Below are positions 1 through 14,016 of a stretch of 64,000 bases of DNA, piece by piece. The stretch covers positions 1,155-65,154 of the forward strand of contig JAEZUG010000026.1 in NCBI GenBank assembly GCA_023421135.1, in the 5' to 3' direction. Both the position numbers and the translations under genes were made by a program. Within the stretch, counting starts at the first letter, position 1. Every line of letters begins with the position of its first letter. The DNA comes from Candidatus Cloacimonadota bacterium (GTDB taxonomy: Bacteria > Cloacimonadota > Cloacimonadia > Cloacimonadales > Cloacimonadaceae). The notes under the pieces were generated by a model that did not search any database, was not told the DNA's origin, and worked only from the letters and a program-made list of their open reading frames with translations.

Positions 1-248
1 AACATCAGATGCATCATCATATTCCCTAAAAGCGAGATCTTTTCCCCCTGCATCGAGTCTACTACCAGGACTCGGTAATCGGCATTGAAGGGATGAAGCA
101 GCACCTGCTGGCGCTGGTGATCGAACTTGATACGTTTCAGGGTGATGCCATCATTCAATCTGACAGCGCAGACATAGCCATCGGTATTGCTCCAGTCATC
201 CTTTCTCTGGATCACCACGATGTCGTTTTTCATGATCTGAGGCTCCAT
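1..248 (-). CDS. mini S24/LexA-like peptidase-domain protein, copy 1 (3' end runs off the window; start ATG 248, alternative in-frame ATG 323)
   Basis: My minus-strand translation is MEPQIMKNDIVVIQRKDDWSNTDGYVCAVRLNDGITLKRIKFDHQRQQVLLHPFNADYRVLVVD... It parallels the lambda CI/LexA C-terminal domain (MEP of the G-x-S-M-x-P motif, LKR general-base Lys, LxPxN). It has the same GAGGAAGG RBS as copy 2. It is absent from the ORF track because the window edge truncates it. Confidence 0.55.
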   Translation of the reverse strand, partial: MEPQIMKNDIVVIQRKDDWSNTDGYVCAVRLNDGITLKRIKFDHQRQQVLLHPFNADYRVLVVDSMQGEKISLLGNMMMHLM

Positions 249-271
249 AATCCTTCCTCGGACATACTTTC
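1..271. repeat. direct repeat, copy 1 of the mini-S24 gene plus RBS/leader (pairs with 2712-2984)
   Basis: Hand alignment of 31-271 against 2743-2984 gives about 23 mismatches in about 241 nt (roughly 90% identity). Similarity continues more weakly to position 1. Confidence 0.8.
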
Positions 272-664
272 TATTAAATGACACCCAAAGTGTCAGACAG
301 CGACCAGTATGACAAATCGGCATAAACCTTTATCCGGTGCAGAGATGCTTAGGACTGCATTCGGAAAGATGTCACAGTGGTTTTGGACTTCTTTGGACTG
401 GTTTGTGACAGCTTTGTGTCAAATCTGGACTGATTTCAGACAGATTTCGGAACTGGCTGAGTCTCAACGAAATAGACCAGTTGGAAAGACTCGCAGTGTG
501 AGTGGATTCGAGTCATTTTAAATTAAATGTCAACTCTGAAATACGTCTTAACCCTCTACTAAAAAATCTTTGGACTCAGGCTCTCAAAAAAATTTATGCA
601 TCAATCTGTCTATTGGGATTATTGCATTTAATCGAAACTCGAATAATTAAATGGGGACATAATC

Positions 665-922
665 TCACCCTTTGTACTCAAGGATACCTATTCTCGCCAT
701 AGCCTGTTTGAATCTCGTTTCATTGAAGTTGTGAATCTCATCCAAGACTGCGCTTCCATTACCGACAACGAAATATATCTCCTTCTTAACTACTTTGTAT
801 GTAACGCTTTCTGGACTGTCGAGATCAAACAATTTAACTTCCTCGGGACATAACATTGTGAAGTCACTAAACTTTGGCTGAAAGATAAGAATCAGTCGTT
901 TGCATGACGTCACAAAAATCAA
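665..922 (-). CDS. hypothetical small protein (85 aa from TTG 922; GTG 913 may be the real start)
   Basis: ORF-track ORF in the low-GC cassette, 7 nt after the stop of the 75-aa ORF. AGGAA lies too close to TTG 922 but about 10 nt from GTG 913. No recognisable motif. Confidence 0.35.
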   Translation of the reverse strand: MIFVTSCKRLILIFQPKFSDFTMLCPEEVKLFDLDSPESVTYKVVKKEIYFVVGNGSAVLDEIHNFNETRFKQAMARIGILEYKG

Positions 923-929
923 ATTCCTG

Positions 930-1157
930 CTATATGAAATTGGGATAGTTTTTTAAGGCAGACTTCACACCTTTAATAATGGACACTATTCCAAAGTGAG
1001 TTCTAGATAGACTCTGTTTTTTTGAAAAGCAATCAAGTAATATTTCGTCACTTTTCATCATATCCATCAACTTAGCCTGAATACTGTTTGAAAAATCTCC
1101 GATGTTTACTCCAATTCCTTTTAACTGCTGCACTAGATAATCACGAGTGACTGACAT
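930..1157 (-). CDS. hypothetical small protein (75 aa)
   Basis: ORF with a perfect AAGGAG RBS about 6 nt upstream of ATG 1157. Low-GC cassette. No recognisable motif. Confidence 0.5.
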   Translation of the reverse strand: MSVTRDYLVQQLKGIGVNIGDFSNSIQAKLMDMMKSDEILLDCFSKKQSLSRTHFGIVSIIKGVKSALKNYPNFI

Positions 1158-1418
1158 AACATCTCCTTTAATAGTATGAATTTACTTGTATCTTTTTTTG
1201 CTCCAAAATATACTATATATGACACTCAAGCCACATAAATTCTATACTCTGATGATCGCTATATGACCTAATACTTTTCTTATGAAATAACAGCCAAACT
1301 ACATAGAGTGATTTATATTCTGAAGCAAGAATTTTGTCAATGATATTATACGCACTTGCAAAACTCGTTAACTCATTACAGATCTTTCCTATCTTAATTT
1401 CAGTAACTATGCTTGCTT

Positions 1419-2696
1419 CTAATGGATGGTTGCATCTAAGCTTATTCCCTTTTGTTCGCATGTAACAACATGGCTTCCATTAGTCAAACGATTGATTTCT
1501 TTAAGTGTAACTTGATCAGGATGACCATAGCGATTCCCGTTTGAGCAAGATGTATAGGCATAATCAGGGCTGTAGTAACTTAGGAACTTGGCATTGTAAC
1601 CAGTATTGCTGCAATGATGGGTGACCTTGTAGTACTTTGTACGTTTGTTAGTTAAGTTGCATTTGCTTCCGAGAAACCCATCAATCTGCTCCCAACCTGC
1701 ATCTCCTGGCAGAAGAAGATGTGATTTCTTAGTAACCACATCCATTATTATTCCATGATGATTTTGGTCTGATGAGTTAGCTTTGTTAGCTAGATTACTT
1801 GCAGCAACCAAGCAAAAACCAAAACCACTTTTTGTTCTGGATTCTGTACCTCTGAGCTCGTAGAGAATGTTTCTGTCACTTGCTTCTCTTAGAAGTTTAA
1901 GAGCAGTCGTAGTCTTACCGACTGGCGTATGGCAGAATATAACAGCATTGGGTTGTAAAGTAGTGATGATTTTTTGAGCACTCATGATATGATCATAGTG
2001 CAAATGTGAGATTATGAATCTCTCAATGAAGAATTCAGGATATTTTAGGTAAAGCCAATCATAAAATTCCGATTCACAAATAGCATTCTTATACTGATTT
2101 GAATGCAGATACGCATCAATAAGCCAGATTCTATTTCCTGGGAATCTAAGAACTATTGTGTCCCCTTGTCCTACGTTCATTACGTGGAGATTAATTTGAG
2201 GATGCTGAAGAAACTCAAGGTCAGATATCAGGTCTGATTCTGGAATCACCTTATTTTTAACTTTATCGATAATTTCCTTGTATTCTTTTTCAACAGCTTT
2301 CTCAATTTTTCTATTACGATTGACTGATGCCAATGTGTCATCATTTAGATACCATATGTTCTGCACTTGGCTATTATGTGAATTAACGTATTCTCTTTTT
2401 AGCCCAGGATGATTCCACTCTACCTGAAAAGCTCTTCCACTGCTTAACAATCCATCATCATCAGAAATGAAACTCGCATGACTGACTAGGTTCTTATCTG
2501 CTAATAAATATCGCACAGGTACTCGAACCTGATCATCGACATTAACTAGTTTGATCCAATAACCACTTTCGCTCAGTTTCTTATCCACTCCTGATTTCTC
2601 ACTTACTGGGAATACATCATCTACTATCCAAGTATCTTGCCAGGATTGAACATCAATGTACTCCATTATAGTCTTAATATAATTACTTACTGCCAT
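1419..2696 (-). CDS. MBL-fold metallo-hydrolase (ComEC/Rec2-related type) with an uncharacterised ~170-aa N-terminal domain
   Basis: 425 aa. Motifs: VMNVGQGDTIVL, ISHLHYDH (HxHxDH, nt 1989-2012), LLPGDAG, KVTHHCS, RYGHPD. GAGGA RBS upstream of ATG 2696. AT-rich codon usage unlike the neighbouring genes. Confidence 0.75.
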   Translation of the reverse strand: MAVSNYIKTIMEYIDVQSWQDTWIVDDVFPVSEKSGVDKKLSESGYWIKLVNVDDQVRVPVRYLLADKNLVSHASFISDDDGLLSSGRAFQVEWNHPGLKREYVNSHNSQVQNIWYLNDDTLASVNRNRKIEKAVEKEYKEIIDKVKNKVIPESDLISDLEFLQHPQINLHVMNVGQGDTIVLRFPGNRIWLIDAYLHSNQYKNAICESEFYDWLYLKYPEFFIERFIISHLHYDHIMSAQKIITTLQPNAVIFCHTPVGKTTTALKLLREASDRNILYELRGTESRTKSGFGFCLVAASNLANKANSSDQNHHGIIMDVVTKKSHLLLPGDAGWEQIDGFLGSKCNLTNKRTKYYKVTHHCSNTGYNAKFLSYYSPDYAYTSCSNGNRYGHPDQVTLKEINRLTNGSHVVTCEQKGISLDATIH

Positions 2697-2706
2697 TTGT
2701 ATATCC

Positions 2707-2961
2707 TCATCCCATCCTCAGCTGCATCACCATCGTCCCTATCAGCGAGATATCTTCTCCCTGCATCGAATCTACTACCTGGACTCGGTAATCAGCATTG
2801 AAGGGATGGAGTAGCACCTGCTGTCTCTGGTGATCGAACTGGATACGTTTGAGGGTGATGCCATCATTCAATCTGACTGCACAAACAGAGCTATCGGTAT
2901 TGCTCCAGTCATCCTTTCTTTGGATAAAAACGATGTCGTTATTCATGATCTGAGGCTCCAT
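2707..2961 (-). CDS. mini S24/LexA-like peptidase-domain protein, copy 2 (84 aa, nucleophile Ser absent)
   Basis: MEPQIMNNDIVFIQ...CAVRLNDGITLKRIQFD...LLHPFNADY...LIGTMV matches the lambda CI/LexA C-terminal fold pattern. The in-frame upstream context is stop-KYIRGRI-MEP, so Ile replaces the catalytic Ser and there is no HTH domain. GAGGAAGG RBS lies directly upstream of the ATG. Confidence 0.6.
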   Translation of the reverse strand: MEPQIMNNDIVFIQRKDDWSNTDSSVCAVRLNDGITLKRIQFDHQRQQVLLHPFNADYRVQVVDSMQGEDISLIGTMVMQLRMG

Positions 2962-2984
2962 AATCCTTCCTCGGATATACTTTC
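2712..2984. repeat. direct repeat, copy 2 of the mini-S24 gene plus RBS/leader (pairs with 1-271)
   Basis: See the hand alignment described for copy 1. Similarity ends about 25 nt upstream of the ATG (CATAATCCTTCCTCGGAYATACTTTC). Confidence 0.8.
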
Positions 2985-3473
2985 AAATCCATTTATTGTA
3001 TTGAACTACATTATCTCAATTGCGTCATTATTTGTCAAGATCAATGCACCCATTTCATTGGGTGATCTTGACTGATCCAGGAAAGATACATCATCTCATC
3101 TTGATTGGTCCCTTGAGACAGGCACAGCGAAGAAAAATCTCTTGCTTCAAAAAATTGATAAAGAGGCAGTTACGTATATGAGGAAAAGATTCCACAGCAA
3201 AGTGTCAACCAACTGACGAAAGTGTCCCCTATATATAAGTAAGGGGTACATTGCAGGAAGTCAGGTTCTGATAATGGCTCAGTGGATCGTTTTTCCAGCG
3301 AGCTGGATTGTCGATAGGGCAACAATGCGTGTATCTTTTAGATTAGCACGGCAATGGTGTAAACCAGGGCTCACACAACATTCTATATCACGGTACTCGC
3401 CACGGAGCGGATTCAGAAGCTGCATTGTAAGTGAAAGAAAATGACGAAGATAAGCTAAGTGTACATAAAAAAC

Positions 3474-3503
3474 TTGACAGTAACTGTAAATTTGTTTTAC
3501 AGT
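3474..3503 (+). promoter_or_regulatory. putative promoter (TTGACA -35, TACAGT -10) overlapped by the inverted repeat ACTGTAAA-N5-TTTACAGT
   Basis: TTGACA at 3474-3479, 18-nt spacer, TACAGT at 3498-3503. Perfect 8-bp arms at 3483-3490 and 3496-3503. AGAGGTGA RBS and ATG 3536 follow. Confidence 0.35.
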
Positions 3504-3535
3504 GCCATGTAAACAGAAGTGCGAAAGAGGTGATT

Positions 3536-6500
3536 ATGCCAGAACGCTTGATGCACAAGATGCATAGTTTTGTTCAGGACAGATTCCCGCTCTCCAAGGT
3601 GATTGGGGTGCTCAGTGACAAGAATAGTAGCCACCTTTTGGAGATCACGGGAAAATCGGGATCGGGGAAGTCTTATTTAATTGCCCCAATGCTGGAGGCT
3701 TTGAAGGATAGCTATAGCAAGATTGAGTACTTCTCGCCCAATCCTCTCCGTTACAATCATTTCAGGGATGTAATCAAGATTCTGACGGATATTGAGGATC
3801 AGAAGCTCGAGGACTTGCTGCTTACTCATCAGAAGGATTACAGCACAGGGAAGAGGTACGATTTTTATTACTATATCACCGAGCAATTGCTGCAGGGCAA
3901 GCACTTTCATCAAATGCTGCTGGTGATCGACGATTGTGATGTGCTGGATCATTATACCAGGGACTTTCTGCAGTATTTGGTGCAATATACTGAGGATCTG
4001 GGAGTGCAGATTGTCGTCTTTTCGCAAAAGCGTCTCTTCAGCTTCTCAATCTTGGAACAAGTGCCTTCTGCCAGCGTGGATGAGATTCAAAAGTTACTCA
4101 CCCAACTCTTTCCCCAAACAGACTTTTCTTATGTAAGCGAGAGTGAGATACTCTGCCGGATCAGCGATGGCAATCTGATGATCATGGAGAGGATTCTCAT
4201 GGAGATGCTGAAAGGGAAAAATAAACCCGTCTTTGATCTCAGTCCCTATTTGGAGCGCTCTTTCAATGCAGTTCAGATCTACCACGAAGCTTTGGAAAAG
4301 CTCAGTAAAAGCCAAACTGAGATACTGATCGGTCTCTTTGCTTTGGATGGTCTGGATGAAGAAGGCTTCAAACAAAGCCTGGGAACCGGCAAGACAGCCG
4401 AGAAAGACCTGAACGCTCTATTGGATCTGGGTTTGGTGAATCTGGTTAACCACAGGTTTGTCATTCAAAAGAAGAATGCCTTTTCTGAATGGCTAAAAAA
4501 CAACCCTGGAGTGCTCTCTTCAGCCCTTTTAGTTAAGATCATCAAGCAACTCAGCAAAGATGATGCTACCGGGCAAGTATTGGCCAGGCTGCATTCTCTG
4601 GTTGGCACTTATCCAGAAGAGCTCTTTTTGGGGCTAATGCACCAGTTGGGACTGATCTGTGATAATGAGAATATGATTGCGCTCTTCGAGTATGCACTCA
4701 AGAATACTAAAGAGCCCGAAGCGATGCTAGAGCTCAACCTGAGAATGGGCAGAGCCTTCTCGGATAACAACGAAAAGGACAAGGCCGTTGATTTCTTCCG
4801 CAAGTGTCTGCATATCTGCAGTGAAAACGATCTCCCGGCCGAAGAAGTGATCTTCCAACTTGCCAGTACCCTTTTTGAGATCAATTCATCTGCCTTTGCT
4901 CTGGAGATCATCAAAAAGTACTCACCTTCCACTATAGATCCCTGGATGAAAGTGAGAATCCGTATGCTGAAAGCTGATATCCTGGTAGAATCTGAGGAGT
5001 ATGAGGAGGCTATCCAAACCATCGAAGCAGTGATGCACTCTCTATCCAGCCTGGAAAACAAACTACACAGGTATCTTGCTCAAGCTGAGGCCAAGAAGAT
5101 CAAAGGTAAGATCCATTACTACGTGAATGAATGGGATCAGGCTGAGATAGCCTTCAAAGATGCAGAAAACATGTATCAACTCGCTGAAGACCAGAAGGGT
5201 CTGGCTGCGATATCAAACAACCTGGGTGTGCTATATATGTTCCAGGGTGATTGGGAGAAGAGCGAATACTGCTTTCTCAGAAGTCTTGCCATCGAAAAAG
5301 AGATTTACAACCTTAATGGCATCTCGGTTTGTTACAACAATCTGGGTGGTTTGATGGACGATAAAGGCGATCAGCTCCGTTCCATCTCTTATCTGGAAGA
5401 AGCACTCAAGATTCAGAAGTTGCTCAATGAGCCCTATAATATCTCAAATATATATAATAACATCGGGATTACCCTGATGGATCAGGGGCAATACGCTCAA
5501 GCCGAGGAAGTGCTGGTTAAATCCCTGGAAACGGCTACGGATTTTAACTTTTTCAGGCATATAGTAGCATCTCTTAATAACCTTGGAGCGCTTCACTTTA
5601 AGAAGGGCAATTGGAATCTCTCAATCAGCTATTACGAGCAGGCCATCAGCAAAAGTCAGGAGAATAGCTTCAATGAAGGCCTGCTGAGATCCTTTAATAA
5701 CCTGGGTGAAGTCTATGAGAAACAAAACGAACTAAACTTGGCTTATGATCTCTATTTCAAGGGGCTGGAGCTCTTGAGCACTGTCTCTGATGATTATATC
5801 AAGGCAGAGCTCTATGGTAATCTGGGCTCTGTGCTTACCAAGCTCCACAAGTTCAAAGAAGCCTATGGCTATCTGGTGGAGAGCTTTGATTTCTTCAAAT
5901 CCCTCAATGCCCGTGATAAGATAATGGAAGGATGCCAGAAGCAGGCTTACTACTTTATACTGACTCATAATCTTGAAAGTGCGGATTACTATCTGAAACA
6001 GGCCATGAAGATGGCTCATGAACAGAATCATCCCTTCGAGATTGGCAGATCTTTCTACCTACGGGCACTACTGGAACGTAAGGATCTGGAATCTGCCAAG
6101 ACAAACCTGGAGGAGTCCATCAAGATGTTTGTGCAGACAGGGAGCAGTTACGAGCTTTCTCTGGCAAACTACGAACTGGCTTCGGTTCTCTTTGAGATGA
6201 AGGAATGGGAACCAGCTCTGCAGATTCTGAAGAATAACCGCAAGATCATCCAGGAGTATGGCTCGATTAAGCTGTTGGAACAGAATGATATACTGTTGCA
6301 GAAGATATCCCGGGAGTATTCTGCTCAGATGCAGGACATCAAGTTTGAAGAAAACCTGCTGAATCAATTCTATGAGATCACGCAGAATCTGAACACTCTC
6401 ACCGATTTAGATGTCCTAATCGAGAATTCTCTTTCCAGCCTGATTGAGCTCTCGGAAGCTGATGGAGGAATGCTCTGCCTGCATGAAAGCAGTACCTTGC

Positions 6501-7822
6501 CGGGTTCCTGGGAGTACAAGCTGTATAAGGGTACTTCTCCGGACGATAAGAATCACAGCATCTTCATGGATCTGTGCCATCAGGTTTACAACAGCAAGAA
6601 GCTGGAAAACTACAAACAACCTCACTTTGCACCTGATTACAACAACATCCTCATCTTGCCTTTATCTATCCGCAAGAACACACTGGGCGTGGTTCTGCTC
6701 TTTAGCACCAGCGGAGCTCATTATTTCTCTGAAAGGATAATCAATCTCCTGAGCGCTCTTACCAATCAGGTGATTGTGATCATAGAAAATATCCGCAGTG
6801 CCAATCTGGAAAAGACCCACGCTGTGATCCGTGAGCAGCTCAATTCCAATAACCTCTATGCCAATATCATCGGCACCAGTCCAGAGATGCAGAAGATCTT
6901 TGAGATCATCGAGAAGGTGAAGGATACGCCCACCTCAGTGCTTTTGGAAGGTCCTAGCGGAACAGGAAAGGAACTCATTGCCAGAGCTCTGCACTTTAGC
7001 AGCAACAGGAGCAATAAGTCTTTTGTCGCCCAGTACTGTGGAGCTTTGCCGGAGACACTGCTGGAAAGCGAACTCTTTGGACATGTGAAGGGTTCGTTCA
7101 CTGGAGCAGCCTATGATAAGAAGGGACTCTTTGAGATAGCCGATGGCGGAACCTTCTTCCTGGATGAGATAGCCGATATCAGCCAAAGCACTCAGGCCAA
7201 GCTTCTGCGCTTCTTACAGGAAGGCGAGATCAAGAGAGTGGGCGCCACCAAGACGGAAAAGGTGAATGTGCGTGTGGTCTGCGCCACGAACGTGTCTCTC
7301 CTGGATAAAGTCAAAGACGGTTCATTCCGGCTGGATCTGTACTACCGACTGAACGTGATCAAGATTGAAGTGCCTCCCCTCAAAACCAGAAAGGGGGACA
7401 TCCCTCTCTTATCAGTTCACTTTCTGGATAAGTATAATAAACGCATCAATAAGTCCGTGGTTGGCATCTCTGATGAAGCCATGAAGATCATGGAAAACTA
7501 TGACTGGCCAGGTAATGTGCGCCAGCTTGAAAATGAAATAGAACGCGCCGTGACTCTGGCGGAGAACAATAGCTTCATCAAGCCCTCAGATTTCTCTGAG
7601 GAAGTGCGGAAGTATATCGAAAACGTGCAGACCATCAAGCTGCTGAATAGCAAGCGATCGCTGAAGGATGCCATTGAAGAATTGGAACGCAAGCTGATAA
7701 CTGAAAGTATGGAACAGAACCAATGGAACCAAACTCAGGCAGCCAAGGAACTGGGTCTCTCCCGGCAAGGCTTGATTAAGAAGCTTAAGAGATATAACCT
7801 ATACAAGGAAGAAGAAGCTTGA
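3536..7822 (+). CDS. giant sigma-54-dependent transcriptional activator: N-terminal P-loop (AAA_16/STAND-like) NTPase + TPR array + GAF + sigma-54 AAA+ domain + Fis-type HTH
   Basis: Walker A GKSGSGKS (3650-3673) and Walker B LLVIDDCD. Repeated xNNLGxxYxxxGxxxxAxxxxxxAL TPR units (about 5040-6250). GAF-like block (about 6370-6800). bEBP core: GPSGTGKE (6950-6973), ESELFGH, GSFTGA (7091-7108), FLDEI, NVRQLEN. C-terminal QAAKELGLSRQGLIKKLKRY. The ORF track starts at GTG 3431, but the RBS and promoter favour ATG 3536. Confidence 0.85.
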   Translation: MPERLMHKMHSFVQDRFPLSKVIGVLSDKNSSHLLEITGKSGSGKSYLIAPMLEALKDSYSKIEYFSPNPLRYNHFRDVIKILTDIEDQKLEDLLLTHQKDYSTGKRYDFYYYITEQLLQGKHFHQMLLVIDDCDVLDHYTRDFLQYLVQYTEDLGVQIVVFSQKRLFSFSILEQVPSASVDEIQKLLTQLFPQTDFSYVSESEILCRISDGNLMIMERILMEMLKGKNKPVFDLSPYLERSFNAVQIYHEALEKLSKSQTEILIGLFALDGLDEEGFKQSLGTGKTAEKDLNALLDLGLVNLVNHRFVIQKKNAFSEWLKNNPGVLSSALLVKIIKQLSKDDATGQVLARLHSLVGTYPEELFLGLMHQLGLICDNENMIALFEYALKNTKEPEAMLELNLRMGRAFSDNNEKDKAVDFFRKCLHICSENDLPAEEVIFQLASTLFEINSSAFALEIIKKYSPSTIDPWMKVRIRMLKADILVESEEYEEAIQTIEAVMHSLSSLENKLHRYLAQAEAKKIKGKIHYYVNEWDQAEIAFKDAENMYQLAEDQKGLAAISNNLGVLYMFQGDWEKSEYCFLRSLAIEKEIYNLNGISVCYNNLGGLMDDKGDQLRSISYLEEALKIQKLLNEPYNISNIYNNIGITLMDQGQYAQAEEVLVKSLETATDFNFFRHIVASLNNLGALHFKKGNWNLSISYYEQAISKSQENSFNEGLLRSFNNLGEVYEKQNELNLAYDLYFKGLELLSTVSDDYIKAELYGNLGSVLTKLHKFKEAYGYLVESFDFFKSLNARDKIMEGCQKQAYYFILTHNLESADYYLKQAMKMAHEQNHPFEIGRSFYLRALLERKDLESAKTNLEESIKMFVQTGSSYELSLANYELASVLFEMKEWEPALQILKNNRKIIQEYGSIKLLEQNDILLQKISREYSAQMQDIKFEENLLNQFYEITQNLNTLTDLDVLIENSLSSLIELSEADGGMLCLHESSTLPGSWEYKLYKGTSPDDKNHSIFMDLCHQVYNSKKLENYKQPHFAPDYNNILILPLSIRKNTLGVVLLFSTSGAHYFSERIINLLSALTNQVIVIIENIRSANLEKTHAVIREQLNSNNLYANIIGTSPEMQKIFEIIEKVKDTPTSVLLEGPSGTGKELIARALHFSSNRSNKSFVAQYCGALPETLLESELFGHVKGSFTGAAYDKKGLFEIADGGTFFLDEIADISQSTQAKLLRFLQEGEIKRVGATKTEKVNVRVVCATNVSLLDKVKDGSFRLDLYYRLNVIKIEVPPLKTRKGDIPLLSVHFLDKYNKRINKSVVGISDEAMKIMENYDWPGNVRQLENEIERAVTLAENNSFIKPSDFSEEVRKYIENVQTIKLLNSKRSLKDAIEELERKLITESMEQNQWNQTQAAKELGLSRQGLIKKLKRYNLYKEEEA

Positions 7823-10689
7823 GCTCTGATACATCTGAACAAAAAGTAGAATCTCTGGATAGCATCCTGAATTTCGTCTCCCTGGATATCGAGACCACGG
7901 GCTTGGATACACGCAGGGATGAGATTATTCAGATAGCTGCGATCCGATTCACTGCGGGAAAGAAAACAGAAGTCTTTGATAGCTTTGTGAAACCCAATGC
8001 TAAGGTGCCCACTTTCATCAAAGCTCTTACTCACATCTCATCGGAAGATCTAAAGAATGCTCCGGATATTAAGGCTGTTCTTCCCAAGCTTCTGGAGTTC
8101 ATTGGTGATTCTGTGATAGTAGGCCAAAATATTGCTTTTGATTTGGGGTTTATTGATGAGAATCTGATACGTATGGGCAAGTTTCCCATTCGTAATCAGA
8201 GATGGGATACGGCCGAGATCGGCAGGGTTTATCTGCCATTCATCAATAATCACAAGCTGGGAACCATGTGTAGAGAGTTTTATATAGTGCTGGATAATGC
8301 TCATCGGGCAGACGCAGATGCTGTTGCCACCGGAGAGCTGCTTTGCCACCTGAGTCATCACATCTACGATCACTATAGTCTGGTGCTCAACGCCAGACTC
8401 TTGGATCTTGCCAAACAGGCCAAGCTGGAAGACAGCCTATATCACTATCTGTATAAACTAGTCGAGTTTCAAAGACATTATGCTTTGATTGGTAAGAAGC
8501 CTGAGCCACCTGAAAACAAGCTGGTTAACGTCATCGATCATCAGATTCCGGGCAATGGAGTAGCGGATATTGAGAACGTCTTTGGTCCTTCCGGAATATT
8601 CTCCCAGCGCTTTGAAAACTATGAATTCAGAAGTGGCCAGCTAGAGATGGCCAAACACATTGCTCTGGCTTTTGAGCAGGAACATCATCTGGCAGTGGAG
8701 GCAGGCACGGGAGTGGGGAAGTCTTTTGCATACTTGGTTCCTGCCATGCAATATGGACTGGATAAACGTACCAAAGTTTTGATCTCTACCAACACCAAGA
8801 ACCTCCAGGAACAGCTCTTCTTCAAGGATATACCAGCTCTTCGCAAGATCATCCCCATCCCCTTTAAAGCATGTTTGGTAAAGGGGAGGGACAATTATAT
8901 CTGTGAACGGCGTTGGAATGAGTTGCTGAGCGACCAGAGCAAAGGCTATACAGATTATGAAGCACATGCTTTACTCTATCTGGTGGTTTGGAAGCAGCTC
9001 ACTCACACAGGAGATATCTCGGAGAATTCGTCCTTCGATCGCAGCCGGTTCAGCTTTGTGTGGAGAAAAGTATGCTCAGATCGCTACCTCTGTGGAGGAA
9101 GAAGATGTCCGCTCAATAAGAGCTGCTATCTGATGAAGCTCCGTAAGGATATTGAGGACGCCAGTATAGTGGTGGCCAATCACTCTTTGCTTCTGGCTGA
9201 TATGCAGACCGATAACCAGAGCTTGGGAGAATATAGCTATCTGGTAGTAGATGAGGCTCATAACCTAATGGCTTCTGCTGCTCGTCTTTTGGGCTTTGAA
9301 CTCGGCTATGTGGATTTGAATTCTCTGCTTCAGCAATTGGGTAGCTCTCATCGCAGGCAACACACAGGCTTTTTGAGCCAATTAAACAGGGCAGTTGAAA
9401 AGAGTCTCTGCCCGGATGCTGTGAAGACACAGATGAGCTCACTGGTCAAGAATGTGGAGAAGAATATTGAGTTTCTTCGCAAACCTCTGCAGGACATGTT
9501 CAATGAGGCTGGTCGGATAGTTCTCCAGGCAGATAGCTTTGGAAAGTGCAGGATAAAGACTCAAGGACAGTATCCTGCTTTAGACGAGAAATTGCTTAGT
9601 GTAAGGAACACCTGGAAATCCCTGGTGAAAGATCTCACGGCTATAAGCAATGTGCTCAGCACTATCAAAACGGGTGTTCTGGCTCAATATGAGAACTATG
9701 TGGAAAGCCTGTCTTCCTTTGGTGCTCGCATGTCTGAAATCGAACAATCCATGATGATACTCCTGGATCCAGATCTGGATAACTATGCTCTGTGGTTGGA
9801 AAACAATGGGGGAGACCGGAATACACCCTCAGCGGTTATCTGTTACGCACCAGTTGAGGTGGGAGAGCATCTCAACCGGATTCTTTACAAAAATGTCCGA
9901 AGCATTGTCTTTACATCAGCCACTCTCGCTTTAAGAGGTTCTTTCAAGTTTTTCAAGGGACAGAGTGGCCTTAATCTGGTGGAGGATGGTAAGCTGGTTG
10001 AGGAGATAGTGGATTCTCCTTTTGACTACGATAAACAGTCACGTCTCATGATCAGCAGCTTCTTACCAGAACCCAAAGACCGTTTCTTTGGGAATCAAGC
10101 CCTGGCCTGTCTGGAGCAGATAGTAACATCGGTCAATATCGGTACCATGGTACTTTTTACTTCCTATAAGGACCTGAACCAGGTTTTCGAGCACCTTTCA
10201 GATGTGTTGTATCAGAACAACCGCAGTTTCTTCGCCCAGGGTAAAGGCTCCAGCCGTTCATCTATTCTGAGTGAGTTTAAACAGGTGGATAATGCAGTAC
10301 TCCTGGGCACCAGTTCATTTTGGGAAGGGGTGGACATTCAAGGTAAGTCACTATCACTTCTTATTCTGTACAAGCTGCCCTTCATGGTGCCATCCGAACC
10401 AGTCGTGGAAGCTTATATCGATAAATTGGAACGAGAGCAGAAAGACTCCTTCATGTACTATATGTTGCCCAATGCACTCCTGAGATTACGCCAGGGCTTT
10501 GGCAGACTGATCAGAAGTAAGAGTGATACTGGTATAGTGTTAATAATGGATTCCAGAGTCTCTACCAAGAAGTATGGTAGTTATTTTAAAGAAGTATTAC
10601 CTTGTCAAAGTCGTGAGTTCCAATCTGAACAACAGCTCTTTAGTGAAATCGCTGCCTTTTTCAGAAACCAAGAAACGGAAGACAAATGA
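7819..10689 (+). CDS. dinG: bifunctional DnaQ-like 3'-5' exonuclease / DinG-family ATP-dependent DNA helicase
   Basis: Exonuclease motifs SLDIETTGLD and HRADADA. Helicase motifs AGTGVGKS (8701-8724), VVDEAHNL and a C-terminal GRLIRS. Cys cluster C-x~70-VCSDRYLCGGRRCPLNKSC suggests an XPD-type Fe-S domain. TTG start overlaps the upstream TGA stop. Confidence 0.85.
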   Translation: MSSDTSEQKVESLDSILNFVSLDIETTGLDTRRDEIIQIAAIRFTAGKKTEVFDSFVKPNAKVPTFIKALTHISSEDLKNAPDIKAVLPKLLEFIGDSVIVGQNIAFDLGFIDENLIRMGKFPIRNQRWDTAEIGRVYLPFINNHKLGTMCREFYIVLDNAHRADADAVATGELLCHLSHHIYDHYSLVLNARLLDLAKQAKLEDSLYHYLYKLVEFQRHYALIGKKPEPPENKLVNVIDHQIPGNGVADIENVFGPSGIFSQRFENYEFRSGQLEMAKHIALAFEQEHHLAVEAGTGVGKSFAYLVPAMQYGLDKRTKVLISTNTKNLQEQLFFKDIPALRKIIPIPFKACLVKGRDNYICERRWNELLSDQSKGYTDYEAHALLYLVVWKQLTHTGDISENSSFDRSRFSFVWRKVCSDRYLCGGRRCPLNKSCYLMKLRKDIEDASIVVANHSLLLADMQTDNQSLGEYSYLVVDEAHNLMASAARLLGFELGYVDLNSLLQQLGSSHRRQHTGFLSQLNRAVEKSLCPDAVKTQMSSLVKNVEKNIEFLRKPLQDMFNEAGRIVLQADSFGKCRIKTQGQYPALDEKLLSVRNTWKSLVKDLTAISNVLSTIKTGVLAQYENYVESLSSFGARMSEIEQSMMILLDPDLDNYALWLENNGGDRNTPSAVICYAPVEVGEHLNRILYKNVRSIVFTSATLALRGSFKFFKGQSGLNLVEDGKLVEEIVDSPFDYDKQSRLMISSFLPEPKDRFFGNQALACLEQIVTSVNIGTMVLFTSYKDLNQVFEHLSDVLYQNNRSFFAQGKGSSRSSILSEFKQVDNAVLLGTSSFWEGVDIQGKSLSLLILYKLPFMVPSEPVVEAYIDKLEREQKDSFMYYMLPNALLRLRQGFGRLIRSKSDTGIVLIMDSRVSTKKYGSYFKEVLPCQSREFQSEQQLFSEIAAFFRNQETEDK

Positions 10690-11615
10690 GAGAAACTATT
10701 ACTCAGCGTTTTGGAGCCCTACATGAAGACGGGAGACTGCGGTTTGATGAACCACTTTCCCGTCACTGCAGCTTCAAAATCGGTGGCCCTGCCGACGTTA
10801 TAGCAATACCACAGACAGAAAAAGAATTCATCGAGCTGCTCAGCTTTGCTCTGGAACACCAAGTTCCCTACTTCATCCTGGGCAATGGCTCAAATCTGCT
10901 GATCAGCGACAAAGGCTACCGTGGCCTGATTATCAAGAGCTCTGGAATGAACAAGATATCAAGAGACGAGCTCTTTATCTCTGCTTATGCGGGTACAGTG
11001 CTCTCGCAAGCCTGCAGCTTTGCCAGAGATCTGGGTCTGGCAGGTCTTGAGTGGGCCAGCGGGATACCCGGAACTGTGGGCGGAGCAGTTTTCATGAATG
11101 CCGGAGCCTATGGAGGAGAGATCAAAGACTGCCTCTATTTCAGCAGATGTATTCGCCCTGACTTAGAGTCTTTGAGGGCTAAGAACCCAATCATCTACCT
11201 CAAGAATGAAGAGCATCACTTTGCTTACCGTAAAAGCTCTCTACAATCCAGTGGACTAATAGTCCTCAGCTCCGCTTTCAAGCTTGAGAAGGATTCTACG
11301 GAGGCAATATCTGCCAGAATGGAAGAGCTGAAACAGCAGAGAAACTCTAAACAACCCATGGATCTACCATCAGCTGGCAGCGTGTTTAAGCGTCCGGAAG
11401 GTCATTTCACCGGTAAATTGATTGATGACTGCGGGCTTAGAGGTTATCGGATAGGAGATGCGGCAGTATCGGATAAGCACTGCGGTTTCATTGTGAATAT
11501 GGGGAAAGCTAGCTTTAATGATGTTTTTGCCTTGATCCAACACGTCAAAAGTACGGTAAAAGAAAGATTCGGAGTGGAACTAGAGACTGAGATCAGACTT
11601 CTGGGTGAGCTTTGA
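10686..11615 (+). CDS. murB: UDP-N-acetylenolpyruvoylglucosamine reductase
   Basis: FKIGGPAD, GNGSNLL, PGTVGGAVFMNAGAYG, AGSVFKRP. ATGA overlap with dinG. Confidence 0.9.
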   Translation: MRETITQRFGALHEDGRLRFDEPLSRHCSFKIGGPADVIAIPQTEKEFIELLSFALEHQVPYFILGNGSNLLISDKGYRGLIIKSSGMNKISRDELFISAYAGTVLSQACSFARDLGLAGLEWASGIPGTVGGAVFMNAGAYGGEIKDCLYFSRCIRPDLESLRAKNPIIYLKNEEHHFAYRKSSLQSSGLIVLSSAFKLEKDSTEAISARMEELKQQRNSKQPMDLPSAGSVFKRPEGHFTGKLIDDCGLRGYRIGDAAVSDKHCGFIVNMGKASFNDVFALIQHVKSTVKERFGVELETEIRLLGEL

Positions 11616-12400
11616 GACAATCTGGAAAATACATATATCCTTCAATCCTATTTGTTCTGTTGATTCTTGCTTGGCACGCTCTCAGTCTGAGCCGCAGCCT
11701 GGACTCCTGGATATTGCCATCTCCTCTTAAGGTGCTCTCTGCTTTCACTGAAGCCGGCGATCTACTATGGTATCATTTCAAGTTTACTCTGCAAGCCACA
11801 CTCTATGGTTTTGCCATCAGCATAGTTCTTGGCTTGATCACAGCCATGATAATGGATAACATCAGAGCTTTTCATCAGGCTCTGTATCCCTATATCATTG
11901 CTTCTCAAACCATCCCGATCATAGCTATTGCACCTCTGCTTATCATCTGGTTTGGCTATGGGCTGGCATCCAAAGTCTTCACAGTGGTGCTCATTTGCTT
12001 TTTCCCCATAGCATTAAATTTCTGGATTGGTCTGAGCAGCGTGAGCATAGATCAGATTCGTCTGATTCGCTCAATGGGAGCAGGACGTTGGAAGACTTTC
12101 CTCTATCTTAAACTGCCTGCCTCACTACCAAGCCTGTTTACCGGGCTCAAGCTTTCTGCTACCTACAGTGTAATGGGTGCGATTATTGGTGAGTGGTTAG
12201 GCGGAGTCGGCGGCTTGGGAATCTATATGACCAGAGCCAGCAAATCATATTTGACTCATCATGTCTATGCCATAGTGATTGTGATAGTAATGCTCAGCCT
12301 GGCTCTCTTCTTAGTCGTATCACTATTTGAGCGCTTACTCCTAAAGTGGAACGCTCCTAAACAAGAAGAGTATAAAGATTTCAAGGAATTAAGGAATTAA
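11612..12400 (+). CDS. ABC transporter permease (SsuC/TauC/ThiX-like binding-protein-dependent type)
   Basis: Six predicted TM segments. EAA-like loop IRLIRSMGAGRWKTFLYLKLPASLP. Start overlaps the murB stop. Confidence 0.75.
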   Translation: MRQSGKYIYPSILFVLLILAWHALSLSRSLDSWILPSPLKVLSAFTEAGDLLWYHFKFTLQATLYGFAISIVLGLITAMIMDNIRAFHQALYPYIIASQTIPIIAIAPLLIIWFGYGLASKVFTVVLICFFPIALNFWIGLSSVSIDQIRLIRSMGAGRWKTFLYLKLPASLPSLFTGLKLSATYSVMGAIIGEWLGGVGGLGIYMTRASKSYLTHHVYAIVIVIVMLSLALFLVVSLFERLLLKWNAPKQEEYKDFKELRN

Positions 12401-12475
12401 TTTGTGGTCATAATGATTTTAATGGACTATATTGTTGAATAAGAGCCAAATCTAACAGCCAAAAAGGAGACCCTA

Positions 12476-13303
12476 ATGCTAGCTATCACTGGTATCGGAC
12501 AAGCAATTACAGAATTCTTCACACCAGATAGAATCTCTATGCTGGTTCGAGTTGCCCTTATCTTAGGCATAGGGCTGCCATTGCTATCTTTGATTAAGAA
12601 GATTACGGTCAAGCTAACTCATGGCAAGCTTTCTCCCCAATCCGAGCAGTTGATCCAGAGAGCTGTTTATTATCTCGGTTTCCTGGTTTTGGTGGTTACT
12701 CTGTTGAATGAGTTTGGCTTCAAGCTTTCGGCTCTTCTGGGAGCTGCTGGTGTGCTTGGTATTGCAATAGGCTTTGCTTCTCAGACCAGTGTATCCAATA
12801 TCATAAGCGGTATCTTCCTGATTAGTGAGAAACCCTTTGTTATCGGAGACGTGATTGACATCGGGGGAACGATCGGAACAGTGGCCTCAATCGATCTCCT
12901 CTCCATAAAGCTTAAGACCCCAGACAACCGTTTTGTACGTGTTCCCAATGAGAACATGATCAAGACTGAAGTCATCAATATCACACGATTCGAAACACGA
13001 AGGGTAAACATCAATGTCTCAGTAGCATATGAATCAGATATGAGTAAGGTTCTGCAAATTCTTGACAACATCGCCAATACTGAAGAACTTGCCCTCAAAG
13101 AACCCAAATACATTTCGGTCGTTGATGCCTTCTCCGATTCAGGCATCAATGTCCTCTTTGGAGTTTGGGGAAATACCAGCGACTATTGGACCTTACGGAA
13201 CAATCTGATGCTTAGGGTTAAACAGGAGTTTGAAAATAACGGGATATCGATTCCATATCCCCACGTGCAGATTGTTGCACAGAACAACAAAGAACAAGTA
13301 TAG
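12476..13303 (+). CDS. mechanosensitive ion channel (MscS family)
   Basis: Three N-terminal TM helices, then SNIISGIFLISEKPFVIGDVI..G..GTV..I.L....K..DN....VPN, typical of the MscS beta-domain. Confidence 0.85.
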   Translation: MLAITGIGQAITEFFTPDRISMLVRVALILGIGLPLLSLIKKITVKLTHGKLSPQSEQLIQRAVYYLGFLVLVVTLLNEFGFKLSALLGAAGVLGIAIGFASQTSVSNIISGIFLISEKPFVIGDVIDIGGTIGTVASIDLLSIKLKTPDNRFVRVPNENMIKTEVINITRFETRRVNINVSVAYESDMSKVLQILDNIANTEELALKEPKYISVVDAFSDSGINVLFGVWGNTSDYWTLRNNLMLRVKQEFENNGISIPYPHVQIVAQNNKEQV

Positions 13304-13317
13304 AAGAGGTAAGAATT

Positions 13318-14016
13318 ATGACAAAACCCAAGATCAAAGGCATCATCTTTGATATGGATGGGACACTTTTAGACACACTCAAGGATATTGCTGACGCAAT
13401 GAACGAAGCCTTGGTAGAATTCGGTTTCCCCGCTCATCCTGAAGAAGACTACAAGGGTTTTGTAGGTAGTGGGCTTTCCGAACTTTGCAAAAGAGTTCTT
13501 CCTGAGAAGAACCAAAGCCAAACGCAGATCAACAAGCTGACTCAGAAGTTTTGGGAAAACTATGAGAACAATTGGTTCATGCACACCAAACCGTATTCCG
13601 GAATCATGTATCTGGTTCAGTTGGGGATAGCCCGCAAGCTCAAGCTTGCCATCCTATCAAACAAACCTCATTACTTTACAAAGAAAATGATCAGGCATTT
13701 CTTCAGGGGTGCCATGATCAAGCATTTCAAAAACCCCTTTGGAATTTACAGTGGAGAACAGACAGATAAGCCCGCTAAGCCAGATCCAACGATCGCTCTT
13801 GAGCTTGCTGAGCGCTTGAATGTGCTGCCAGCAAATATAGCTTTTGTGGGTGATAGTGATGTGGACATGCAGACGGCAAAGAATGCAGGCATGATCGCAG
13901 TTGGCGCCGCCTGGGGATTCAGAAGCAAGAAAGAACTCCAGGATGCCGGAGCCGATTACGTCTTCGACACAGCCCTTGATTTGGTGAAGTTCATAGAATC
14001 CGAGCCTGCTATCTGA
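13318..14016 (+). CDS. HAD-family hydrolase (phosphoglycolate phosphatase-like)
   Basis: HAD motif [13 protein letters not shown], motif II ILSNK, motif [19 protein letters not shown]. Confidence 0.8.

Follow-up and report, generated by a model that had tools for sequence, protein, structure and literature searches.

We analyzed a 64,000-nt stretch of the genome of Candidatus Cloacimonadota bacterium (assembly GCA_023421135.1, contig JAEZUG010000026.1, positions 1,155 to 65,154 of the forward strand), hereafter the window, and focused on the cassette located at its positions 1-3100. This cassette contains a gene for a 425-amino acid (aa) protein with a ComEC-type metallo-beta-lactamase (MBL) domain, which lies between two short open reading frames (ORFs) of the Peptidase_S24 family. 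As described below, this region is probably what remains of the left, repressor-proximal end of a Mu-like prophage, a fossil with a cargo slot that holds a predicted defence DNase. The features of the cassette, all on the minus strand, are the following:

1-248, minus strand: copy 1 of the S24 stump, starting at 248 and with its other end off the window
249-271, minus strand: 23-nt leader of copy 1, bearing a ribosome-binding site (RBS)
272-549, minus strand: non-coding conserved element, with its 235-nt core (el235) at 506-272 and the motif AGACNNNTTTCAGA at 549-535
665-1157, minus strand: 164-aa cargo ORF, broken
1157-930, minus strand: 75-aa ORF
922-665, minus strand: 85-aa ORF
2696-1419, minus strand: 425-aa ORF, after a 10-nt gap from the mini-S24 ORF
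1419-2198, minus strand: ComEC-type MBL domain (aa 167-425 of the 425-aa protein)
2199-2696, minus strand: N-terminal domain (aa 1-166 of the 425-aa protein), family-specific
2961-2707, minus strand: mini-S24 ORF of 84 aa in the ORF listing; copy 2 of the S24 stump, a mosaic with a crossover at 2772/2773
2962-2984, minus strand: 23-nt leader of copy 2, RBS-bearing
3010-3038, minus strand: sigma70-like promoter TTGACA-17-TGnGATAAT, with 11/12 consensus matches, about 50 nt upstream of stump 2

The ORF calls confirmed the coordinates of all the features listed in the original prediction, which had been made from the sequence letters and had described an AT-rich accessory module bracketed by two mini-S24 genes. 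A scan of the G+C content (GC) bore out the atypical composition: the cargo block (507-2706) has a GC of 35.9%, as compared to a mean of 46.1 ± 1.3% in 2.2-kb windows beyond the first 3.5 kb (z = -7.7), and it is the lowest among 618 windows. The two S24 ORFs and the 23 nt upstream of each are spanned by a direct repeat of 267 nt (5-271 versus 2718-2984, 89% identity, 2713-nt spacing). The analysis supported the view that the cassette is an accessory module of foreign composition and mobile-element origin. The repeats do not bracket one element, as had been assumed; each is the 5′ homology arm of one of two cassettes that follow each other, and the second copy is seen at the head of a further cassette in another assembly (L118, see below).

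Both mini-S24 ORFs matched the Pfam family Peptidase_S24 (8.3e-11 for copy 2 and 4.5e-10 for copy 1) over profile positions 45-116 only (45-115 in copy 1), and copy 1 was aligned by tblastn with residues 154-239 of a phage repressor. Comparison with related loci showed that these ORFs correspond to the last 84 codons of a 242-aa phage repressor gene coding for a helix-turn-helix (HTH) and an S24 domain. They begin at the Met of the SM motif of the repressor, and the GQSMEP of the full-length protein reads GRIMEP in the window. The place of the repressor sequence upstream is taken by the leader GAAAGTAT[G/A]TCCGAGGAAGGATT (GAGGAAGG in copy 1), which contains the RBS; its two copies are identical at 22 of 23 positions, and that of copy 1 abuts the last base of el235. 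This leader was not found in phage repressor genes, in the fetched loci or in JGI metagenome contigs (two metagenome scans). Copy 2 has a stop codon seven codons upstream of its start, and no HTH-coding remnant or degenerate repressor N-terminus was detected upstream of it in the window by tblastn. Since both ORFs start at the Met of the SM motif, the leader stands in place of repressor sequence and no HTH remnant is left, the mini-S24 ORFs are, as judged from sequence comparison, 3′ stumps of the phage repressor gene and no regulator class of their own.

The stumps have lost the HTH, the Ala-Gly cleavage site and the Ser nucleophile, and they retain the general-base Lys (TLKR) and the C-terminal beta-barrel of S24. 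Stump 1 is decaying and evolves as if unconstrained: its private changes are 11 nonsynonymous to one synonymous, as against 12:37 in eight full-length alleles (Fisher p = 3e-5 for stump 1 versus full-length repressors), and they fit neutrality (p = 0.32). Stump 2 shows few nonsynonymous differences from the full-length alleles, with a ratio of nonsynonymous to synonymous rates (dN/dS) of 0.03-0.14, and a recent phage origin would account for this low dN. Elsewhere, stumps are truncated at repressor residues 121, 157, 173, 198, 214, and 215. With the HTH, the cleavage site and the Ser missing, and with the 11:1 changes of stump 1, the idea that the mini-S24 ORFs encode regulator-like small proteins was not supported. 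The site at 3038-3010 is perhaps the promoter of a transcript running through stump 2 and the MBL gene, and we regard it as a candidate on the basis of its match to the consensus.

A protein (P0001) that differs by one residue from the window MBL protein is encoded on three Logan contigs, directly after a full-length 242-aa repressor (HTH_19 plus Peptidase_S24). This repressor carries AEISAGMP (Ala-Gly), GQSMEP (Ser nucleophile) and TLKR (Lys), and its gene is divergent from those coding for a 197-aa ORF, a 683-aa Mu-transpos_C protein and a 246-aa AAA_22 protein. An MBL homologue, 69% identical, occurs in the same gene setting in a Cloacimonetes metagenome-assembled genome (MAG). Comparison with PHROGs gave matches to a transposase (1.6e-79), a DNA transposition protein (2.2e-21) and a transcriptional/CI-like repressor (3e-33). 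A DDE transposase (rve plus Mu-transpos_C) and an AAA+ B protein were found beside the divergent repressor in L001, L004, L012, L031, other loci and IMG/VR contigs. The transposase, which is MuA-like, has 71 IMG/VR relatives with 52-62% identity, many of them in 30-37 kb contigs, and the order of the repressor and, divergent from it, the 197-aa, A, B and 175-aa genes is maintained in the IMG/VR contigs. On this gene content, the related elements can be assigned to a previously undescribed family of Mu-like transposable phages of Cloacimonadota. Since the transposition genes are present in the related loci and none of them is in the window, the window would contain a remnant and not a prophage.

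The approximately 400 bp of apparently non-coding DNA contain the conserved element el235 (272-506). An exact 22-mer from it found 31 stretches of the genome collection, mostly from Cloacimonadota MAGs and often at contig ends, and almost all of them align over the full 235 nt with 80-97% identity and sharp bounds. L001-L003, contigs of differing lengths, terminate at one shared point inside el235. The element is 93.6% identical at the nucleotide level between loci whose MBL proteins are 48% identical. The conserved motif AGACNNNTTTCAGA is located about 30 nt upstream of it, across a variable spacer, and the element itself is rich in (C)AGTC(C/T)NAA direct repeats and TGTSAC motifs and contains the conserved inverted motif pair AGAC..TTTCAGA / TCTGAAA..GTC. 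A protein gene in el235 (a 70-aa ORF at 309-521, plus strand) was rejected, as there are stops in many copies and the variation is even across codon positions. So was a known RNA or tRNA, with no match in Rfam or ARAGORN, and a structured RNA, the z-scores of the minimum free energy (MFE) being -0.9 and -0.5 and the alifold consensus being weak (about -22 kcal over 300 columns). In distant Mu-like phages from IMG/VR, an approximately 200-nt homologue comes directly after the repressor stop codon, with the motif order and the terminal motif kept, and three such contigs stop 42-127 nt past it. In virions of Mu, the left end of the phage is flanked by a short piece of host DNA, and contigs ending at this distance past the element would fit such a flank. 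From its position and conservation, el235 is probably the left end of the phage.

In the fetched loci, the end element is separated from the repressor or its stump by 0.9-2.3 kb with genes that are unrelated between loci. This interval between the S24 gene and el235 holds at least 13 different cargoes, and in distant phages it is empty. PADLOC and Pfam analyses, the PADLOC defence assignments referring to proteins tested from five cargoes, identified AbiLi (4e-84) together with AbiLii (1e-22), Old (4e-204), a methyltransferase with a DRT-associated DUF1848 protein (1.5e-51), and a DUF4238 protein (Pfam). All the cargoes have 36-39% GC, with 36-49% in the surrounding loci (L012-L036), and this uniformity suggests a shared source pool or a shared constraint. 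Based on its conserved flanks, its variable content and the known defence systems among the cargoes, the interval between repressor and end can be considered a phage-borne defence hotspot.

One locus from another Cloacimonadota MAG (L040, positions 1-5633) is an array of two cassettes and contains a 326-aa ORF, an end element, a gene for a GmrSD-like protein of 552 aa, an S24 stump of 91 aa, AbiLi/AbiLii and a second end element. The GmrSD-like gene is just upstream of the stump, and thus outside the slot, between the two copies of the end element. This stump is truncated near repressor residue 157, with a different junction.

The assembly L118 is 100% identical to window positions 1-12696 and extends further left. 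Its positions 12449-13760 contain the complete stump 1 (84 aa), a stop codon and then a gene for a 341-aa protein, which resembles ChaN/Tiki weakly, at a Pfam value of 1.2e-4 that is under the cutoff. Homologues of this 341-aa gene are present in L029 and L027, where a 249-aa ORF, the end element and polA come after them. Given stump 1 and the 341-aa gene in L118, and the homologues elsewhere that end in an end element, the genome carries at least two successive cassettes. The leader of cassette 2 begins at the base after the end element, which gives a unit of 2713 nt. Insertion of a one-unit circle and unequal crossing-over would both fit the origin of this tandem.

Three genes are fixed neighbours of the locus in four Cloacimonadota lineages: one for a 1463-aa activator (3431-7822, plus strand) with a P-loop AAA_16 (STAND-like) N-terminus, tetratricopeptide repeats, a GAF domain, a sigma54-activator AAA+ domain and HTH_8, and those for a DinG-like RNase_T-helicase and MurB (7819-10689 and 10686-11615). 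The site is syntenic in the three lineages other than that of the window (L007/L009/L011/L016; L013; L022), each with an S24 stump, a cargo and an end element. The truncation points at this site are repressor residues 215, 214, and 173, two of the three lineages have a different cargo, and el235 shows 93.6% nucleotide identity versus 46-58% aa identity for the neighbouring core genes. A constant syntenic context would have spoken for a core gene. Four lineages do share the site, but not all of them have the same cargo there, and the MBL family is rare, with 34 clusters found in a collection of 5.8 billion proteins. Control of the cassette by the 1463-aa activator through sigma54 was considered and rejected. 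The sequence TGGTTG-N5-TTGCT (about 3213-3198) failed a 2-mismatch test, no -24/-12 site is common to the four syntenic loci, and no sigma54 promoter aimed at the cassette was found.

Comparison of the window with phage L001 revealed an uneven spread of differences. There are 20 substitutions in nt 33-189 of the stump 2 ORF, and nt 190-255 are identical to L001. From nt 190 to window position 469, where L001 ends (about 2.3 kb), only five substitutions and two short indels were found, one of the indels being a 2-nt deletion in the 164-aa gene. This distribution places a crossover at window position 2772/2773, within stump 2, which is thus a mosaic. This breakpoint and the different cargoes at the same site in related species indicate that cargo is swapped through homology of the conserved flanks, with recombination in the end element and in the 3′ part of the S24 gene.

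The 75-aa and 85-aa ORFs, which had been taken for tiny orphan genes, are the halves of one 164-aa gene broken by the 2-nt deletion, at about position 955. The gene is intact in phage contig L001 (6287-6781), and the split into 75 and 85 aa was also called in the independent assemblies L118 and L119. No Pfam, PHROG or PADLOC match was found for the 164-aa ORF. It was rejected as an obligate partner of the MBL protein, since it is absent beside the MBL homologues in L004 and L007. A further ORF of 82 aa (1213-1461, minus strand) lies where the AT content is highest (31% GC) and shares its sequence in part with the 3′ end of the MBL gene. Its Pfam matches were at chance level and it was called as a gene in none of the assemblies looked up, and it is probably spurious.

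The 425-aa protein had been described as a hydrolase with ComEC/Rec2-type MBL motifs in its C-terminal part and an orphan region in its first ~170 aa, and both parts of this description held. The MBL part matched ComEC_Rec2 (NCBIfam, 1.5e-14) and, in a profile search against the PDB, the MBL domains of ComEC (9ic4, 6.8e-22; 30bt, 1.5e-20). The full-length AlphaFold2 (AF2) model is globular, with a predicted local distance difference test score (pLDDT) of 86 and a predicted template modelling score (pTM) of 0.90, and Foldseek aligned it to 9ic4 (1.3e-13, template modelling score (TM) of 0.78). The MBL domain has about 260 aa, versus 266 aa in ComEC, with no large insertions. The catalytic motifs are intact: GQGD, HxHxDH, D332, HH360/361, and H392 are invariant or nearly so in 30 homologues. 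The match to ComEC/Rec2 itself (TIGR00361) reached 53 bits versus a cutoff of 190 and was confined to profile positions 437-659, the MBL part, and neither a polytopic membrane competence domain nor a DUF4131 Pfam match was found in the 425-aa protein. In the AF2 model of the isolated N-terminal domain (pLDDT 77), a beta-barrel is combined with one long helix. It (aa 1-165) has no Pfam match, and Foldseek searches of PDB and BFVD gave nothing with E < 0.05, the weak matches being mostly to OB-fold proteins and single-stranded DNA-binding proteins. A profile of this domain retrieved 45 proteins from 1.84 billion representatives, mostly of 370-480 aa and with the domain at the N-terminus, together with a few shorter fragments, and no other architectures.

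Several defence models matched part of the MBL region: LmuA (PADLOC, 3e-13) at residues 303-405 only; Avs1a (PADLOC 7.5e-6, NCBIfam 2.7e-9) at residues 305-401 only, with 36 bits versus a cutoff of 420; and 6A-MBL (NF058524) with 22.6 bits versus a cutoff of 220. The genomic context of distant family members was also analyzed. Some of them are inside type I restriction-modification (R-M) operons, between hsdS and hsdR. Two others (P0020 and P0022, in L116 and L142) have a Peptidase_C11 gene, a gene for a 330-380-aa protein and a CHAT-PASTA protease gene nearby, with a patatin gene in L116, a neighbourhood that resembles the caspase-nuclease 'canu' loci. Another is near HATPase and SNF2 genes. 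The MBL domain of ComEC is a metal-dependent DNase (PMC8579336), and ComEC-like MBL DNases are the effectors of Hachiman, AVAST, Lamassu, DRT and canu systems, in which they are proenzymes, a neighbouring trypsin-like or caspase protease removing two gating insertions (PMC12799240). The 425-aa protein is thus most likely a cytoplasmic metal-dependent DNase directed against invading phage or plasmid DNA. A role in defence is the most plausible reading, since the slot holds AbiLi/AbiLii and Old elsewhere and the distant relatives are in type I R-M operons and beside CHAT and C11 genes. Of the defence or mobile-element-derived module initially envisaged, the mobile-element origin was thus upheld, the defence role is the most plausible one, and the anatomy of regulator plus orphan ORFs was not.

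In the scheme that we propose for the fossil end of a Mu-like prophage, the intact element would consist of two divergent arms: in one, the genes for the 197-aa, MuA-like, MuB-like and 175-aa proteins, in this order away from the repressor; in the other, the gene of the HTH-S24 repressor, then the variable cargo and finally the 235-nt end element. In lysogens, the cargo and the repressor would presumably share a transcript, like rexAB and cI of lambda. The phage body would have been lost here, leaving at least two cassettes that both start with the final 84 repressor codons: cassette 1, within the window, with stump 2, the MBL gene, the broken 164-aa ORF and an end element, and cassette 2, from the window edge, with stump 1, the 341-aa gene and more. 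Homologous recombination in the S24 3′ end and the end element would allow the cassette to trade cargo with phages in circulation. The MBL protein would act on invader DNA, its N-terminal domain binding the target or restraining the enzyme, and the MBL gene may be expressed here from the sigma70-like promoter. An extension of this scheme, possible though short of probable, is that fossil prophage ends, with a stump and el235 beside a core gene, are heritable landing pads in which phage defence cargo is swapped or stacked without the phage, and that the N-domain plus MBL protein is a new stand-alone antiviral DNase, whose orphan and possibly OB-like domain senses or binds invader DNA.

Several observations weigh against this scheme. 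Neither a transposase gene nor any other gene of a phage is present in the window. The reading frames of both stumps are still open and have RBSs, and a promoter-like site precedes stump 2. For el235 as the left end, the case consists of position and conservation: an inverted-repeat search and a terminal-motif scan for the phage right end gave one match per contig, and neither inverted terminal sites nor a target-site duplication was found in the DNA examined. As for the defence role, no PADLOC or NCBIfam defence model was matched by the MBL family above cutoff; the surroundings of one distant homologue (P0031) do not clearly speak of defence; and the ADurb.Bin080 lineage has, at the same site, an MBL homologue with 48% identity, approximately the divergence of the neighbouring core genes, so that a long vertical residence, and hence a host function, is possible.

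In a first alternative reading, mini-S24 works as a small regulator, or as an anti-repressor in the form of a dominant-negative C-terminal domain, and makes up a two-gene module with the MBL effector. The intact 84-codon ORFs, the strong RBS, the promoter-like site and the 10-nt distance to the MBL gene would fit it, as would the retained general-base Lys and S24 beta-barrel part and the dN/dS of stump 2. However, the HTH, the Ala-Gly site and the Ser nucleophile are missing from the stumps, stump 1 changes in a neutral-like way and unlike the repressor alleles, the low dN of stump 2 is accounted for by recent phage origin, the leader and start context were not found elsewhere, the truncation points vary between genomes, and MBL homologues occur with a 53-aa stump or in R-M operons without any S24 gene, so we consider this reading improbable. 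Even more difficult to credit is that the MBL protein is a pro-nuclease and the S24 repressor the protease that activates it (cf. HamM, Avs1a, CanC), which would couple SOS or prophage induction to DNA degradation. The nuclease gene is indeed immediately downstream of a gene with a protease fold in the phages, the MBL nucleases of known defence systems depend for their activation on a protease encoded next to them (PMC12799240), and two distant family members are beside CHAT and Peptidase_C11 genes. But AbiL and Old fill the same position, so that a hotspot explains the adjacency; the MBL domain is compact, without the two gating insertions; and S24 enzymes are self-cleaving, the stump in the window being devoid of the catalytic Ser.

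A non-defensive role of the MBL protein, in degradation of host or competitor DNA at induction, in nucleotide scavenging, or as a housekeeping phosphodiesterase taken up by phages, is unlikely, although not far-fetched. The core-gene-like divergence of the same-site homologue is what such a role would predict, the recent exchange with phage L001 could have run in either direction, and the ComEC-type fold includes the non-nuclease esterases Pce/CbpE. On the other hand, the family is rare and patchy (the 34 clusters and 45 representatives given above), other lineages replaced the MBL gene at the same site, the GC of the gene is about 9 points under that of the flanking genes, and the slot is otherwise filled with defence genes, with relatives inside R-M operons. 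Finally, el235 could be a cassette recombination site or a structured RNA, the 2713-nt unit of leader, stump, cargo and element being part of an integron-like array. This reading, which would explain why the element abuts the next leader to the base in tandem, draws on the two-element arrays also seen in L040, L021, and L004 and on the conserved inverted motif pair. It was judged highly improbable: there is no associated integrase or recombinase, no RNA fold signal (the consensus fold being weak and sparse) and no Rfam match, the homologue in diverged phages is directly after the repressor and at contig ends, and the mosaic of stump 2 points to homologous and not site-specific recombination. 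The fossil left end of a Mu-like prophage thus remains our preferred explanation.

Compared with known systems, the locus is a variant of two known kinds, phage defence hotspots and MBL nuclease effectors. In phage lambda, rexAB lies behind cI. The P2 and P4 prophage hotspots are fixed positions with alternative anti-phage systems (Rousset et al., 2022, PMC9122126). The slot shares with these systems a fixed position in a temperate phage, conserved bounds, alternative anti-phage systems and location on the same strand downstream of the lysogeny repressor, and it differs from them in belonging to a Mu-like phage of Cloacimonadota and in being placed between the repressor and the end. Unlike the P2/P4 hotspots, the window would represent a phage-free fossil that is apparently still exchanging cargo. 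In Mu and D3112/B3-type phages, the repressor gene reads toward the left end and the early operon (transposase A, AAA+ B) in the opposite direction, and the end region is rich in repeated sites. The Cloacimonadota phages resemble them in the repressor/A/B layout, the genome of about 33-37 kb and the repeat-rich end, and differ in having a self-cleaving S24 (CI/LexA) repressor and the cargo slot between repressor and end. The stumps share with LexA, lambda CI and UmuD the C-terminal two thirds of S24 and the Lys of the Ser-Lys dyad, and differ from them in the missing DNA-binding domain, cleavage site and Ser, and in the relaxed constraint of stump 1.

The 425-aa protein is similar to the C-terminal MBL domain of ComEC/Rec2 in fold, catalytic motifs and domain size, and unlike it is soluble, with an unrelated N-domain and no membrane competence domain. 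With the gated MBL pro-nucleases (HamM, Avs1a, Lamassu, CanC; PMC12799240) it shares a ComEC-like MBL domain, the partial sequence matches and, in some distant relatives, caspase-like proteases alongside; it differs from them in lacking the gating insertions and an adjacent trypsin or caspase gene, its neighbours in the window being the S24 stump and the broken 164-aa ORF, and in having an extra N-domain of 165 aa. This rare N-domain plus ComEC-type MBL protein is thus a candidate single-gene anti-phage nuclease, which contrasts with the protease-gated MBL nucleases. A formerly unexplained "regulator + hydrolase" cassette can in this way be assigned to a defined object, a putative defence hotspot of Mu-like phages of Cloacimonadota, a phylum that abounds in anaerobic digesters and of which few members have been cultured. 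The locus provides a natural example of cargo exchange via conserved flanks, with its crossover mapped, and el235 and the S24 3′ end can be used as search handles for mining further cargo.

Two minor observations were made on the phages. In L004 (2495-3480), a second type of repressor (248 aa, 44% identical) is followed directly by a diverged end element, without cargo, and a complete transposition module of the other type is immediately beside this locus, which indicates tandem or nested Mu-like elements in one MAG contig. In addition, palindromes on CACTGTGACAC were found, several of them in the first early gene of the phages (197 aa; L031 3069-3277 and L004 7246-7433) and one in the end element (at about 340-350 in the window). 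These palindromes are candidate repressor-operator or transposition-enhancer sites.

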